Shown here one piece after another: positions 2,443 through 21,851 of a stretch of 21,851 nucleotides of DNA. Numbering within the stretch: the stretch's first letter is position 1; every line of letters begins with the position of its first letter. Under the pieces are notes generated by a model that was not told the origin of the DNA, made no database searches, and was given only the letters and a program-made list of their open reading frames with translations. Both the position numbers and the translations under genes were made by a program. Origin of the DNA: a virus (Duplodnaviria; Heunggongvirae; Uroviricota; Caudoviricetes); IMG/VR virus record IMGVR_UViG_2547132277_000002; one strand, written 5' to 3'.

Positions 2443-2517
<75 letters not shown>

Positions 2518-2520
2518 ATA

Positions 2521-2596
<76 letters not shown>

Positions 2597-2598
2597 AC

Positions 2599-2675
2599 TG
2601 GACCGCCACCGGGGACTCGAACCTCGCACACTCAACTTAAAGAGTTGACGCTCTTTCCTGATGAGCTAGTGGCGG
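2599..2675 (-). tRNA. tRNA of uncertain identity (manual fold gives anticodon UUU, Lys-like, with atypical C at position 33)
   Basis: 77 nt, CCA encoded; acceptor CCGCCAC/GTGGCGG (C1-G72), D-arm GCTC-ATCAGGAAA-GAGC, anticodon stem TCAAC/GTTGA, loop UCUUUAA, T-loop TTCGAGT. Needs tRNAscan-SE. Confidence 0.5.
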
Positions 2676-2676
2676 T

Positions 2677-2752
2677 TGGTGGCCCTTGCTGGATTTGAAC
2701 CAGCGACCTGGCGATTATGAGTCGCTCGCTCTCACCACTGAGCTAAAGGGCC
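2677..2752 (-). tRNA. tRNA with CAU anticodon, ileX/ileZ-like (tRNA-Ile2; elongator Met not excluded)
   Basis: 76 nt, CCA encoded; GGCCCTTTAGCTCAGTGGTGAGAGC...CTCATAA...GGTTCAAATCC...AAGGGCCACCA closely resembles E. coli tRNA-Ile2 as recalled; anticodon loop CUCAUAA. Confidence 0.7.
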
Positions 2753-2984: not shown

Positions 2985-3896
2985 GTGGCTATTTCTCTTG
3001 CGCAAAGGATGCTTTTGATGACGCAGCAACTCGAAAACATGCCAATAACAGAAATCGAAATTGCCTACGGTGGAGAGGCATACGCAGATAATCAGATCGA
3101 CGCGAAAACATTAGGCGAAGCCTTAACCTCTCTTAGTGCCCTGATTGAACACGCCGAAAAAATAATTAATGGCGAAACAGCAGAGCCGAAAGTCAACATC
3201 AAGGCAACAAAAGAAGGTTCATTTACTTTGCTTGTTGCTGTGATGGGGAGCATAAAAACTATTAACGCCCTTGGCCTCGTTGCAGGTGGTGGAGTTGCCG
3301 CAGGTGGCGTACTCGGGATAATCGAATGGCTCAAAGGGCGTAAAATCAGCTCCATTGTCGTCGATGAACAAAAAGATACAGCAGAAATCGAAGTGGATGG
3401 TGAGAAGGTTAAATGCAGTAACGACATTCAAAAATTAATAACCAGTCCAATCATCCGAAAAGAACTGGATAAATTAATCTATAAACCCCTGCAGACTGAA
3501 AAACCATCCACGTTCTCAGTTTCACAGCAGAAGCATAAGGTAGTCAGGGTGACGCAAGCTGAAGCAGTAAGTTTTAAAACTGCAAAATCCACCTTTGTCG
3601 AGAAAACGCACGTAACGACACGCCAAGCTAATGTACATTTTGCTAATGTTCGATTCAAGCAAGGCAAAAGCTGGGATATCATCCTGCCAAATGGCGAAGA
3701 AGTTAGCGCATCTATGAAAGATGAGGCTTTTCTTGAACGGGTTGAACACAACCAAGCAGCATTCTGTAAGGGTGATCTTTTTGTTGTAGAACTGACAGAA
3801 ACAACAAAAGAAACAAATGGCGCGCTGTCTAAACCACGCTATAGTATTACTAAGGTTATACGCCACAGAGCGGCGGCAGATAGGAAACTACTTTAA
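2985..3896 (+). CDS. Cargo gene A: unknown protein with a central Gly-rich hydrophobic segment (probable start ATG 3018, 292 aa)
   Basis: ORF-track start 2985 is GTG; ATG at 3018 has AAGGA 8 nt upstream. Hydrophobic stretch FTLLVAVMGSIKTINALGLVAGGGVAAGGVLGIIEWL; no motif I can assign. Opposite strand to every flanking phage gene. Confidence 0.6.
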   Translation: MAISLAQRMLLMTQQLENMPITEIEIAYGGEAYADNQIDAKTLGEALTSLSALIEHAEKIINGETAEPKVNIKATKEGSFTLLVAVMGSIKTINALGLVAGGGVAAGGVLGIIEWLKGRKISSIVVDEQKDTAEIEVDGEKVKCSNDIQKLITSPIIRKELDKLIYKPLQTEKPSTFSVSQQKHKVVRVTQAEAVSFKTAKSTFVEKTHVTTRQANVHFANVRFKQGKSWDIILPNGEEVSASMKDEAFLERVEHNQAAFCKGDLFVVELTETTKETNGALSKPRYSITKVIRHRAAADRKLL

Positions 3897-3899
3897 ATC

Positions 3900-4145
3900 A
3901 TGTCAATCCTAAGCATTATGCTTTACATCACTGTATTCATGGCTGTCGCAGCGACGGTCAGATATGCTGTGCTTAGGTTCTTGGTTTGGGTAAAGCCGAA
4001 TGCGTATATTGAACTAACCTACACCGATCCTGAAGGCAGAACCGCTAAAAGGAAAGTCAGCGTTAGAAACGAAAATGACGCAGAAGAGTTGGCGCTACTG
4101 CTACGCGAACTCAAAACTCGCAACGAAGCAAGTGCAGGAAGGTGA
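3900..4145 (+). CDS. Cargo gene B: small protein with N-terminal transmembrane helix and charged C-terminus
   Basis: 81 aa; ILSIMLYITVFMAVAATVRYAVLRFLVWV hydrophobic; starts 4 nt after gene A stop. Confidence 0.55.
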   Translation: MSILSIMLYITVFMAVAATVRYAVLRFLVWVKPNAYIELTYTDPEGRTAKRKVSVRNENDAEELALLLRELKTRNEASAGR

Positions 4146-4545: not shown

Positions 4546-4902
4546 TTATGATAGAATCAAGCATATACATCCATCAATAAAGCCTAATGCAGTTTGCAGC
4601 TCCTTTCTTATAGTTCCATCTGAGCACCTGCGTTTCTTCGCGATTGAGCGTAGAGAAACACCAATAACAAAGTGAGCTATGAGCAGCTCATATTCCTCTG
4701 GTTTATACTTTCGCAACCGAGCCACACAACCGTCTATCATGATGCCTTCATCATCATCACACTGGAGACGTGACTTTTTGCCATGTGGCAAAAGCCTCTT
4801 GAAGCCCGCTGCTATCGGTTGCCAATCGACACCGCTATTTTCTGCTGCAGCCCATGCCCCCCAGCGATCTAAAACCTCATACATATCACGCCCCATTACC
4901 AT
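4546..4902 (-). CDS. Late-gene antiterminator Q (phage 21 / DLP12 QuuD-like family)
   Basis: 118 aa; motifs VLDRWGAWAA, IAAGFK, Cys-rich segments; conserved position downstream of rusA; resembles QuuD-type Q as recalled. Confidence 0.7.
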   Translation of the reverse strand: MVMGRDMYEVLDRWGAWAAAENSGVDWQPIAAGFKRLLPHGKKSRLQCDDDEGIMIDGCVARLRKYKPEEYELLIAHFVIGVSLRSIAKKRRCSDGTIRKELQTALGFIDGCICLILS

Positions 4903-8499: not shown

Positions 8500-8523
8500 A
8501 AAAAAAAACCCCGCCGAAGCGGG
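8500..8523 (-). terminator. Rho-independent terminator upstream of the two-gene cassette (downstream of the ParA-like gene)
   Basis: CCCGC-CGAA-GCGGG stem at 8510-8523; on the minus strand followed by T9 (plus A-run 8500-8508). Hairpin nearly identical to the one at 6673-6690. Confidence 0.65.
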
Positions 8524-14654: not shown

Positions 14655-15047
14655 TTCACCCTCCTGAGGGTTGGTAATTAAGGAGTTCTCCACGGGTCAG
14701 GTGGAGTGCGTGCGCCGGACACGGGTGAGCATCCGGCACTGGCAGTTTACTGGAAGGATATATCCCTGAAAAGTCAGGACATAACGCGAAAGCGCACGGC
14801 GAAGTTATTCTGTCTGTACGGTGTCGTTAAATTTAATTCGACCGTGCGCTTCCGGTTGTGGCAATCCGCGAAATGGCGCGGCGGTAAGTATGGCGGGGTT
14901 ATTCCTTCCCCGTTGAGGACACCGGGTTGTCAGGTTGACCATACGCTTAAGTGACAACCCCGCTGCAACGCCCTCTGTTATCAATTTTCTGGTGGCGTTT
15001 AGCGGTATCAGTTTTACTCCGTGACTGCTCTGCCGCCCTTTTTAAAG

Positions 15048-18153: not shown

Positions 18154-18404
18154 TGTTCAACCGTCGCCAGTTGTCGTTGGTATTCTGCAACTGGCGCGTT
18201 CCGGAGTGATAGCCATGAGCGAACAATACCTGATAACGCTCGATGAGTGGAAACCAAAACGGTTCAGTCTCCCAATAACAAACACTACCCTGGTGAAATA
18301 CGGAAAACTAGGATACATCGTTCCAAGACCACAAAAAATTCGTGGGCGTTGGCTGATAGATCGCCGAGCAGTATTTGTTGGGCCTGGTGGGTAGTGACTC
18401 CAAC

Positions 18405-18908
18405 TTACTGATAGTGTTTTATGTTCAGATAATGCCCGATGACCTTGTCATGCAGCTCCACCGATTTTGAGAACGACAGTGACTTCCGTCCCAGCCTTGC
18501 CAGATGTTGTCTCAGATTCAGATTATGTCGCTCAATGCGCTGAGTGTAACGCTTGCTGATAACGTGCAGCTTTCCCTTCAGGCGTGATTCATACAGCGGC
18601 CAGCCATCCGTCATCCATACCACGACCTCAAAGGCCGACAGCAGGCTCAGAAGACGCGCCAGTGTGGCCAGAGTGCGTTCACCGAAAACGTGCGCCACAA
18701 CTGTCCTCCGTATCCTGTCATACGCGTAAAACAGCCAGCGCTGACGTGATTTAGCACCGACGTAGCCCCACTGTTCGTCCATTTCCGCGCAGACAATCAC
18801 ATCACTGCCCGGTTGTATGCGCGAGGTTACCGACTGCGGCCTGAGTTTTTTAAGTGACGTAAAACCGTGTTGAGGCCAACGCCCATAATGCGGGCAGTTG
18901 CCCGGCAT
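18405..18908 (-). CDS. insB: IS1 InsB frame (expressed as the InsAB-prime transposase by -1 frameshift)
   Basis: 167-aa ORF overlapping the insA 3-prime end in the -1 frame, as in IS1. Confidence 0.85.
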
Positions 18909-19102
18909 CCAACGCCATTCATGGCCATATCAATGATTTTCTGGTGCGTACCGGGTTGAGAAGCGGTGTAAGTGAACTGCAGTTGCCATGTTTTACGGCA
19001 GTGAGAGCAGAGATAGCGCTGATGTCCGGCGGTGCTTTTGCCGTTACGCACCACCCCGTCAGTAGCTGAACAGGAGGGACAGCTGATAGAAACAGAAGCC
19101 AC
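18827..19102 (-). CDS. insA: IS1 InsA
   Basis: 91-aa [48 protein letters not shown]..., zinc-finger/HTH protein of IS1. Confidence 0.9.
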
Positions 19103-19229
19103 TGGAGCACCTCAAAAACACCATCATACACTAAATCAGTAAGTTGGCAGCATCACCGGCCTGGTGAAACGGGAATTGCGCCGGAAATTCATACTGGCGA
19201 TGATGATGCACTGAAGGAGATTTTAACTC

Positions 19230-20348
19230 ATGTCACCGAGGCCACGAAAAAACAGCACTGACGTAGCCGGTCTTTACGAAAAGTTTGATCGCAGAACTGG
19301 CAGAGTTTACTACCAGTATAAAAATCCTGTGACTGGAAAATTTCACGGACTAGGAACAGACAAAGGTAAGGCAGAAAAAATCGCTTCCACAGCCAATCAG
19401 CGAATAGCTGCAGCAGAAGCTGAATATTTCATGCGTAAAATTGATGAAAGTCCGTCAGCAACAAAACGTCGGGGTATCAGATTAAAGGCATGGGTTGATC
19501 GATATCTGAAAATACAGGACACGCGACTGAAAAATGGAGATATTGCAGCTACAACTCACAAAGAAAAAGCTCGAATGGCTGCATACCTGGTTTCCCGTCT
19601 GGGAAACCACCCATTGAAAGAACTGGAAGTAAGAGACTTTGCATTAATACTGGATGAGTGGCTGGATAAAGACATGGTCAGCACAGCGAGAGTAAATCGC
19701 GGATTATGGGTTGATATTTATAAAGAAGCACAGCATGCAGGGGAAGTTCCTCCTGGATGGAATCCTCCGGAGGCTACCCGTAAACCGATCCCTAAAGTAA
19801 CCAGAGCCAGGCTCACCATGGAAGACTGGCAAAAAATTTACAATGCAACGCCTGAAAAACACTTTATCCGTAACGCAATGCTTCTTGCGATTGTTACTGG
19901 TCAGCGCCGTGATGACATTTGCCACATGCGTTTTTCAGATGTGTGGAACGAACACTTGCATATCACCCAGGGAAAAACCGGAATGCGTCTGGCGTTACCG
20001 CTTACACTACGCTGTGATGCCATTGGGATAACGTTAAAAGAAGTTATTGATGGGTGCCGAGACAGAATATTAAGTCCATATCTAATCCATAGTCGGCACC
20101 AGAAACAACCGAAGCCGATGAGTAAAGACAACCTGAGCGACTACTTTGCCAAAGCACGGGATCTGGCTGGGATAATTCCACCAGCAGGAAAAACTCCGCC
20201 AACATTTCATGAACAACGCTCTCTATCAGAACGGCTGTACCGTGCACAGGGTATCGATACAAAAACATTACTAGGACATAAAGTCCAGGCAACCACCGAT
20301 CGCTATAACGATACTCGAGGTCAGGAATGGGTTAAGTTGGTTATTTGA
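19230..20348 (+). CDS. int: Tyrosine-family phage integrase
   Basis: 372 aa; C-terminal catalytic region LLGHKVQATTDRYNDTRGQEW (His...Tyr) like lambda Int; preceded by xis; 3-prime end faces the potB/potC junction. Confidence 0.85.
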   Translation: MSPRPRKNSTDVAGLYEKFDRRTGRVYYQYKNPVTGKFHGLGTDKGKAEKIASTANQRIAAAEAEYFMRKIDESPSATKRRGIRLKAWVDRYLKIQDTRLKNGDIAATTHKEKARMAAYLVSRLGNHPLKELEVRDFALILDEWLDKDMVSTARVNRGLWVDIYKEAQHAGEVPPGWNPPEATRKPIPKVTRARLTMEDWQKIYNATPEKHFIRNAMLLAIVTGQRRDDICHMRFSDVWNEHLHITQGKTGMRLALPLTLRCDAIGITLKEVIDGCRDRILSPYLIHSRHQKQPKPMSKDNLSDYFAKARDLAGIIPPAGKTPPTFHEQRSLSERLYRAQGIDTKTLLGHKVQATTDRYNDTRGQEWVKLVI

Positions 20349-20518
20349 CAAACACCATATGGAATATCCGTCACCATCTCAGGAAAAAAGTGTTGTAAAA
20401 TGCGTGGCCTAGTTTTGGGGAAACGTTTTGGAGAGATTTTGGAGAAAGGAAAAAATTGAATAAATTCAAAATCCTGAAAGTGTCCCGCCTTATGAATAAG
20501 AAGGTGGAACTCGAATGA
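20349..20518 (+). other. Prophage-chromosome junction: att region plus potB 3-prime remnant (reads ...[11 protein letters not shown]-stop, overlapping potC ATG)
   Basis: In-frame segment ending at TGA 20516-20518 overlaps the potC start exactly as a native potB terminus would; direct repeat TTTTGGAGA x2 at about 20425-20444 may be Int arm-type sites. Core boundary not resolvable without the other junction. Confidence 0.4.
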
Positions 20519-21309
20519 TCGGTCGACTGCTTCGCGGCGGTTTTATGACCGCTATCTACGCGTACCTGTATATCCCAATCATTATTTTGATTGTGAACTC
20601 CTTTAACAGCTCGCGCTTTGGCATCAACTGGCAGGGTTTTACCACCAAATGGTATAGCCTGCTGATGAACAACGACAGCCTGTTACAGGCAGCGCAGCAT
20701 TCACTAACAATGGCGGTGTTTTCGGCGACGTTTGCTACGCTTATCGGTTCACTGACGGCAGTTGCGCTGTACCGTTATCGCTTTCGTGGTAAGCCGTTCG
20801 TTAGCGGAATGCTGTTTGTGGTGATGATGTCACCAGATATCGTGATGGCGATTTCGCTGCTGGTGCTGTTTATGCTGCTGGGTATTCAGCTTGGCTTCTG
20901 GTCGCTGCTGTTCTCGCATATCACCTTCTGCCTGCCATTTGTGGTGGTGACGGTGTATTCGCGCCTGAAAGGTTTTGACGTGCGAATGCTGGAAGCGGCG
21001 AAAGATCTCGGTGCCAGCGAATTTACCATTCTGCGAAAAATCATTCTGCCACTGGCAATGCCAGCGGTGGCGGCGGGCTGGGTGTTAAGCTTTACCCTGT
21101 CGATGGACGATGTGGTAGTTTCTTCGTTCGTCACCGGACCAAGTTATGAAATTCTGCCGTTAAAAATTTATTCGATGGTCAAAGTCGGCGTATCGCCGGA
21201 AGTTAACGCGCTGGCAACCATATTACTGGTGCTGTCGCTGGTGATGGTTATTGCCAGCCAGCTTATTGCTCGTGATAAAACGAAAGGTAACACAGGGGAC
21301 GTTAAATGA
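20515..21309 (+). CDS. potC: Spermidine/putrescine ABC transporter permease PotC
   Basis: 264 aa [33 protein letters not shown]... matches E. coli PotC as recalled; ABC permease signature EAAKDLGAS...ILPLAMP. Confidence 0.9.
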
Positions 21310-21851
21310 AAAAATGGTCACGCCACCTGCTCGCGGCGGGTGCTCTGGCACTGGGCATGAGCGCCGCTCACGCCGATGACAACAACACGCTGTATTTCTA
21401 CAACTGGACCGAGTACGTGCCGCCAGGACTGCTTGAACAGTTCACCAAAGAAACCGGTATTAAGGTTATCTATTCGACTTACGAGTCGAACGAAACCATG
21501 TACGCCAAGCTGAAAACATACAAAGACGGTGCCTATGATCTGGTGGTTCCTTCAACCTATTACGTTGATAAAATGCGTAAAGAAGGGATGATCCAGAAGA
21601 TCGACAAGTCGAAGTTAACAAACTTCAGCAATCTCGATCCAGACATGCTCAACAAGCCTTTTGACCCGAATAACGACTACTCCATTCCGTATATCTGGGG
21701 TGCGACGGCGATTGGTGTTAACGGTGATGCGGTGGATCCGAAATCTGTCACCAGCTGGGCCGATCTGTGGAAGCCAGAGTACAAAGGCAGCCTGCTGTTG
21801 ACCGACGATGCCGTCCCCGAAGTGTTCCAGATGGCGCTGCGTAAGCTGGGC
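21306..21851 (+). CDS. potD: Spermidine/putrescine periplasmic binding protein PotD, N-terminal 181 codons (continues past window end)
   Basis: ATG 21306 overlaps the potC stop; [23 protein letters not shown] signal peptide then [31 protein letters not shown]...; absent from ORF track because there is no stop in window. Confidence 0.9.

Follow-up and report, generated by a model that had tools for sequence, protein, structure and literature searches.

In lambda, the attachment site lies between gal and bio, and e14 and phage 21 integrate into the 3′ end of icd, for which they supply a replacement gene end. Prophages have also been described at the boundary between potB and potC of Escherichia coli. 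Sp6 of strain Sakai is listed at potC/potB (PMC8190617), a prophage of O104:H4 is listed at potB/potC (PMC3486847), and several Stx2 phages are inserted at potC (PMC8065619). Sp6 circularises spontaneously and, after transfer to K-12, integrates at the same locus as in Sakai (PMC2669165). The split of the operon into potAB and potCD is likewise in the literature already, so that the structural part of what we describe here (integration site, integrase type and operon split) is ordinary, and the finding adds little by itself. Our literature search found no functional study of polyamine uptake in potC lysogens, and the Sakai small-gene and EDL933 translatome supplements contained nothing for the int-potC locus.

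Here, we analyzed a 21.8-kb stretch of DNA (21,851 nt, hereafter the window), which alignment showed to be E. coli DNA that is near-identical to the chromosome of the ETEC strain B2C (NZ_CP035874). The two differ by one insertion, one small indel and three mismatches clustered at 8500-8509; these three (8500, 8503 and 8509) are the only substitutions in 18.4 kb and lie in non-coding DNA near a Hok/Gef remnant. According to its annotation, the B2C chromosome has the order roxA-pepT-potA-potB, a decayed lambdoid prophage of ~29 kb, and potC-potD-ymfA-ycfZ. The window holds the right-hand 20 kb of this prophage, followed by potC and the first 546 bp of potD. Its gene order is an IS21-family element in the lysozyme gene, holin, four tRNA genes, Q/RusA, replication and immunity genes, ydfABC, DicF, dicB, a recE-like exonuclease, xis, int, potC and the 5′ part of potD. 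Positions 1 to ~1100 lie inside the IS21-family element (istA of ISEc62 in the B2C annotation) that interrupts the prophage lysozyme gene. The tRNA cluster (2443-2752, minus strand) consists of Gly-TCC, Thr-TGT, Lys-TTT and a tRNA with a CAT anticodon, which is called Met by ARAGORN and Ile in RefSeq. The DicF sRNA homologue (14987-15038, plus strand; 68.6 bits with Rfam) lies upstream of dicB and ydfD, with which it forms a Qin-like division-inhibition module. Portal and tail genes are missing from the annotation of the near-identical B2C prophage.

Reading the window from its sequence alone had suggested that a prophage sits between potB and potC and separates potAB from potCD; both the empty K-12 site and attL of B2C agree with this. 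The int stop codon (TGA, 20346-20348) and the potC start codon (ATG, 20515-20517) are separated by exactly 166 bp, the gap that had been given. Homology to unoccupied genomes starts only at 20493, which places the integration at the 3′ end of potB, and the potB-like terminus that had been noticed ahead of potC proved to be the last 8 codons plus stop of potB, with its TGA over the potC ATG. The same reading had treated an intact potB immediately upstream as evidence against such an insertion. None is present there, and potB of B2C sits 29 kb upstream at the other prophage end; this criterion was itself mis-stated, because integration of this kind is expected to leave potB essentially intact at attL.

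Alignment with the unoccupied potB-potC locus, the check that had been proposed, gave a 14-bp common core (Table 1), which is found at position 2501 of the K-12 sequence (L001, attB) and at positions 4589 (attL) and 33716 (attR) of the B2C locus (L003). Within the 49 kb of the B2C locus, the core occurs exactly twice, once per prophage end. The K-12 attB reads ...cgtttgc TGAATAAGAAGGTG gaactcgaATGAtcgg, the attR of the window reads ...cgcctta TGAATAAGAAGGTG gaactcgaATGA, and the attL of B2C reads ...cgtttgc TGAATAAGAAGGTG agcgaattagatgatTAA. Phage and host flanks are thus swapped around an identical short core, as in a lambda-type attachment site. A G/A polymorphism is present within the core at 20500, with A in EDL933 and in strain Z1323MEC0002 (L006). 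Should this A come from the phage, only the right-hand AAGGTG would be left for strand exchange.

We rebuilt attP from the two junctions and then searched for it in viral contigs by an exact-pattern scan. A contiguous attP was found in three viral contigs (L008, L009 and L010). In two of the three, int, both arms, the core and the flanks follow the rebuilt attP colinearly for 2.6-2.7 kb (97-98% identity), and the alignment passes through the core without a gap. These contigs are an independent confirmation of the crossover region. As another source of attP, a free phage with the same int was sought in an annotated phage collection by nucleotide and protein searches, which gave only two near-identical records; neither was of use for attP because both are prophage predictions that still contain potC, potD, ymfA and ycfZ. 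The core in the phage attP is identical to potB codons 278-282 and has a diverged copy of the potB tail next to it. The phage would have entered the last potB codons by site-specific recombination of the lambda style.

We then compared the coding ends that the insertion leaves behind. Read in the potB frame, attP encodes ..SRLMNKKVSELDD-stop, as against ..SRLLNKKVELE-stop in the host, and the end of PotB changes from ..SRLLNKKVELE-stop to ..SRLLNKKVSELDD-stop after insertion. The phage thus supplies a substitute potB tail (..KKVELE-stop becomes ..KKVSELDD-stop), in which the end ..SELDD is phage-encoded at attL and PotB is lengthened from 285 to 287 residues. The altered PotB (WP_000799406.1) is annotated in two lysogens, B2C and strain 203740; the prophage of the latter is 44 kb long and intact-looking. 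On the other side of the prophage, the residual potB end matches the last 8 codons and stop of K-12 potB, except for its first codon (ATG vs CTG). The phage-derived A at 20492 thereby creates an 8-codon mini-ORF (MNKKVELE-stop) whose stop overlaps the potC ATG. No Shine-Dalgarno sequence was found ahead of this mini-ORF (20492-20518), which, by inference only, might preserve termination-reinitiation coupling with potC. The potC gene retains its own ATG and ribosome-binding site, with the Shine-Dalgarno sequence inside the att core, and the PotC protein of K-12 recurs unchanged in the window, B2C, strain 203740 and EDL933.

This arrangement resembles that of e14 and phage 21 at icd, in that attP carries a diverged tail of the target gene, which stays open after insertion. 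It differs from the icd case in that the target, potB, is internal to an operon and is translationally overlapped with the next gene. Since potB lies inside the operon, the insertion also severs the downstream genes from their promoter. Compared with lambda, whose site lies between two loci, the present core is inside a coding gene within an operon.

Table 1. Features at the right end of the prophage (positions in the window).
Feature	Position	Strand	Remark
xis 5′ part, codons 1-58 of 89	18215-18389	+	matches B2C xis, L003 32215-32484
IS1, 768 bp, in xis	18390-19157	-	window-versus-B2C alignment break with 9-bp overlap
xis 3′ remainder	19158-19261	+	overlaps int start by 32 bp
int, lambda-family tyrosine integrase, 372 aa	19230-20348	+	Pfam domains, 1z1b alignment
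Int-proximal (P′-type) arm of attachment site	20349-20492	+	contiguous with core and other arm in attP contigs
Three direct candidate Int arm-type sites	20413-20445	+	TTTTGGGGA 20413-20421; TTTTGGAGA 20426-20434 and 20437-20445
Residual potB 3′ end	20492-20518	+	ATG AAT AAG AAG GTG GAA CTC GAA TGA
att common core TGAATAAGAAGGTG	20493-20506	+	14 bp, crossover region; identical in attB, attL, attR and attP
potC, intact	20515-21309	+	100% identical to K-12 PotC; Pfam BPD_transp_1
Equivalent of potD-proximal transcription start	21289	+	EDL933 Cappable-seq TSS 1628426, 2/8 conditions (PMC10469882 suppl. 6)
potD 5′ 546 bp, runs off window	21306-21851	+	private in-frame change at 21813-21818

The integrase has an N-terminal arm-binding domain (Pfam PF09003, Arm-DNA-bind_1, residues 1-64, 3.7e-21) and a catalytic domain (PF00589, Phage_integrase, 1.7e-18). 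It aligns with the lambda Int structure 1z1b (E=3e-54), and the catalytic residues R, K, H, R, H and Y are conserved, together with the motifs GQR, KTG, FHExRS, LLGHK and the Tyr. Its identity to Int of lambda-like phage records is ~44.5%.

The direct repeat that had been noticed near 20425-20444 and proposed as Int arm-type sites was extended by our search to three copies of TTTTGGRGA in the int-side arm (144 bp, 38.6% GC). Neither strand of the 21.8-kb window holds a further match to TTTTGGRGA; shuffling gave an expectation of 0.61 matches, and 3 of 100 shuffles had at least 3 matches anywhere. One more exact copy, the only one elsewhere in the 49 kb of B2C, stands in the other att arm at a distance of 117 bp from the core, and a one-mismatch copy (TTTTCGAGA) follows it by 14 bp, so that two sites occupy 117-139 bp from the core. 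A perfect IHF consensus, WATCAANNNNTTR (AATCAATCAATTG), precedes these distal-arm sites at L003 4698-4710; a search of the int-side arm for it gave none at up to 1 mismatch. The three int-side sites are invariant in all five att sequences aligned, and the distal-arm sites and the IHF consensus do not vary among the aligned att sequences either. With their confinement to the two arms, the repeats are well supported in silico as candidate Int arm-type sites.

The element resembles the lambda Int/Xis/IHF system in the arm-binding and catalytic (RKHRHY) domains of Int, the int stop near the core and xis overlapping the int start. The three int-side and two other-arm candidate sites mirror P′1-3 and P1-2 of lambda, and the other arm also has the IHF consensus. 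The present system differs from lambda in Int (~44% identity, as measured against lambda-like phage records), in its int-proximal arm of ~144 bp and in that int-side arm having no IHF consensus at up to 1 mismatch. The arm motif of lambda also differs from TTTTGGRGA.

A strong hairpin was found in the distal arm ~195 nt past the core (dG -25.3 kcal/mol, z -3.4; L003 4784-4816). Both attP, where it follows int, and attL, where it follows potB, have it in conserved form. Like lambda sib/tI, in which a hairpin for RNase III or termination serves the retroregulation of int, it stands beyond the core in the int-distal arm and is parted from int by integration; it differs in having no U-run on either strand and in lying just downstream of a remnant of a minus-strand tail-fibre gene. 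The hairpin could be a sib/tI-like element or the end of the minus-strand tail-fibre genes.

We counted the junction in complete E. coli genomes. The int-to-potC junction was present at 80% coverage or more in 1401 of 5426 genomes, and the int-xis pair in 1634 of the 5426 (~30%). In a further 210 genomes, an insert of ~900 bp separates int from the arm; both of its genes, one for DUF2335 and one hypothetical, are on the minus strand. In L006, where the insert occupies 3097-4000, a terminator-like hairpin follows right after the int stop, and the conserved arm resumes from about position 20385 of the window. The window is colinear with CP-933N of EDL933 across int, the junction and potC, with 12 mismatches in 2186 bp, of which 1 is in the 166-bp junction. 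It shares with Sp6 and CP-933N the integrase type, the site, the orientation, the xis-int arrangement and potB at the other prophage end, and differs from them in the rest of the prophage. The window element is a decayed element of ~29-30 kb in an ETEC-like background. It has Rac/Qin-like early genes (recE-like exonuclease, dicB, DicF), has no effector or stx cargo in the window, and has its lysozyme gene interrupted by the IS21-family element and its xis by a private IS1.

This IS1 is flanked by a 9-bp target duplication, GGCCTGGTG, at 18381-18389 and 19158-19166. Its left inverted repeat (IRL) faces int, and it lies 72 bp upstream of the int ATG. As far as the start of IS1, the xis translation is the same as that of B2C; beyond it, the frame meets stop codons. 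The IS1/xis junction was absent from all 5426 complete E. coli genomes searched, and xis is intact in B2C, EDL933 and others, whereas the excisionase gene next to int is broken in the window. The element is probably locked in place and unable to excise, because xis is broken, portal and tail genes are lost in the near-identical B2C prophage and the late genes are decayed. The IS1 also separates int from all upstream phage promoters. The TTGGCA at the left end of IS1 was considered as a promoter -35 and rejected, as no usable -10 is found in the flank after IS1. A second private change affects potD, in which GCCCGTG is replaced by GCCGTCCCCG, so that Arg170 becomes Val-Pro directly before Glu171. 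This change was absent from all 4441 genomes matched. Glu171 of PotD contacts spermidine (PMC4096761), and the change may be a binding-site lesion or a sequencing or assembly error.

Host-type DNA ahead of the potC ATG amounts to the 14-bp core and 8 bp only, so that any potC promoter must lie in prophage DNA. The expression evidence comes entirely from EDL933, and not from the strain of the window, which also has the IS1 in xis. In RNA-seq of EDL933 in LB, the RPKM values were 5 for potA, 11 for potB, 18 for potC and 46 for potD, and 0 for both int and xis (PMC4048457). Across the 11 RNA-seq conditions, potC and potD were scored active in nearly all, and int (Z1764) and xis (Z1765) had no reads in any of the 11 and are among 144 never-covered genes (PMC4048457). 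The annotation of Z1764 is that of a 'partial' integrase, so that transcription starts in the 3′ part of int are conceivable. A multi-mapping artefact was ruled out as the cause of the zero int reads, since int-xis is single-copy in EDL933. These data show that potC is well expressed in a natural lysogen, EDL933. An antibiotic condition induced other prophages, but CP-933N was not one of them; the logFC of potC was 1.8 there, and its RPKM did not change (PMC4048457).

EDL933 array data for the wild type and the rpoS mutant gave log2 signals that rose from 10.1 to 12.0 for potA, from 7.8 to 10.9 for potB and from 11.7 to 13.4 for potC, and fell from 9.0 to 7.3 for intN, at L011 1868-2986; potD and xis are unlisted in these data (PMC2907692). 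The RpoS-dependent intN array signal (log2 9.0) conflicts with the absence of int reads in the 11 RNA-seq conditions.

Transcription starts in EDL933 have been mapped by Cappable-seq, in which the start sites of a gene are defined as those up to 250 bp upstream of its start codon (PMC10469882). A potA start was found in 7 of the 8 conditions, and no start was found within 250 bp upstream of potC, int or xis in the 8 conditions (PMC10469882). A start inside int and farther than 250 nt from potC would fall outside this definition and may exist. A potD-proximal start does exist (Table 1): its equivalent in the window is inside potC, 17 nt upstream of the potD ATG. The motif TGaTAAAAC occurs just upstream of it. 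Our promoter scan returned none on the plus strand between 18527 and 20700, and there is no consensus-like sigma-70 promoter in 20349-20514, where the best sites of a relaxed scan scored 7-8/12. The only extended -10 found, TGgGATAAT (20168-20176), was set aside since it is not conserved in EDL933. A known internal potCD promoter was also rejected, as the only published internal RpoD site, where potA meets potB, is separated from potCD by the prophage.

The sequence-only reading had potC and potD transcribed from within the prophage, through int read-through or from a junction promoter. If the two genes are expressed at all, the structure of the junction requires a promoter in phage DNA; the two routes fare differently. 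Were potC and potD mainly expressed as a 3′ extension of the xis-int transcript, their level would follow prophage early or int transcription. The layout would allow this, in that int and potC run in the same direction and the 166 bp between them contain no terminator-like site and, folded as RNA, give no significant structure (z +0.42). In attP such a transcript would meet the strong hairpin ~195 nt past the core, and integration moves that hairpin behind potB. The intN array signal is above background in EDL933, and the spontaneous excision of Sp6 means that some int/xis expression exists. However, the EDL933 RNA-seq and array data argue against int read-through as the main source of potC, because int and xis, which are single-copy, are without reads in conditions where potC and potD are transcribed, and int and potC respond in opposite directions to the loss of RpoS, with a much higher signal for potC. 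They point to a separate start that lies past most of int. Moreover, in the 210 genomes with the insert, two convergent genes and a terminator-like hairpin part int from the arm, and in the window IS1 cuts int off from the upstream phage promoters. We therefore consider this source of potC and potD transcripts unlikely.

Another account is that potC and potD are unimportant and poorly expressed after the split, so that PotABCD is effectively lost in lysogens and is drifting to decay. In its favor, E. coli can make its own spermidine and has further polyamine uptake systems, the private Val-Pro change of the window lies directly before the spermidine-contacting Glu171, and no start was called within 250 bp upstream of potC in EDL933. 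Against this, two independent data sets from EDL933 have potC and potD mRNA at levels no lower than those of potA and potB, PotC is unchanged relative to K-12 in the window, B2C, strain 203740 and EDL933, and the phage leaves the ribosome-binding site of potC in place and provides a new end for potB; the potD variant could in addition be a sequencing error. Loss of the transporter in lysogens thus seems very improbable to us.

On balance, we slightly favor a phage-side promoter located in the arm or at the 3′ end of int, to which the potD-proximal start would add. In this scheme, potC and potD would be expressed from a start in phage DNA that is independent of the xis-int transcript; it would lie in the 3′ part of int or in the arm, as a weak or atypical promoter, and a weak potD-proximal promoter inside potC would contribute too. 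The junction promoter route fits the RNA-seq and array data, but not the lack of a Cappable-seq start within 250 bp of potC. A more specific version, in which a dedicated constitutive outward promoter in the att arm or int end is kept by the phage lineage and restores potC and potD expression, is possible but rather doubtful; such a promoter may overlap the arm-type sites, and Int occupancy could then modulate transporter stoichiometry. As for the earlier suggestion that polyamine uptake is linked to prophage state, nothing supports such a link, and CP-933N was not induced under antibiotic. Expression of potC and potD appears constitutive, uncoupled from the potA promoter and not tied to prophage induction. 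If the EDL933 data carry over to the window, the IS1 insertion should not affect potC or potD. Taken together, structure and expression make it quite probable that the right end of the window represents the attR junction of a defective lambdoid prophage with an integrase of the Sp6/CP-933N type, behind which potC and potD are expressed in this way.

The analysis does define, to the base, the core, the substitute tail of potB and the candidate arm sites of a prophage family that is present in about three of ten sequenced E. coli, including O157:H7. It also brings out an inconsistency in the published EDL933 data, in which int is silent and the potC and potD genes behind it are expressed, but a mapped potC start is missing. 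The position of the potC start bears on whether phages that cut operons carry compensating promoters. If the outward promoter is real, ~30% of E. coli strains would run half of PotABCD from a phage-supplied promoter, and potC and potD would have escaped the potA promoter and PotD autoregulation.
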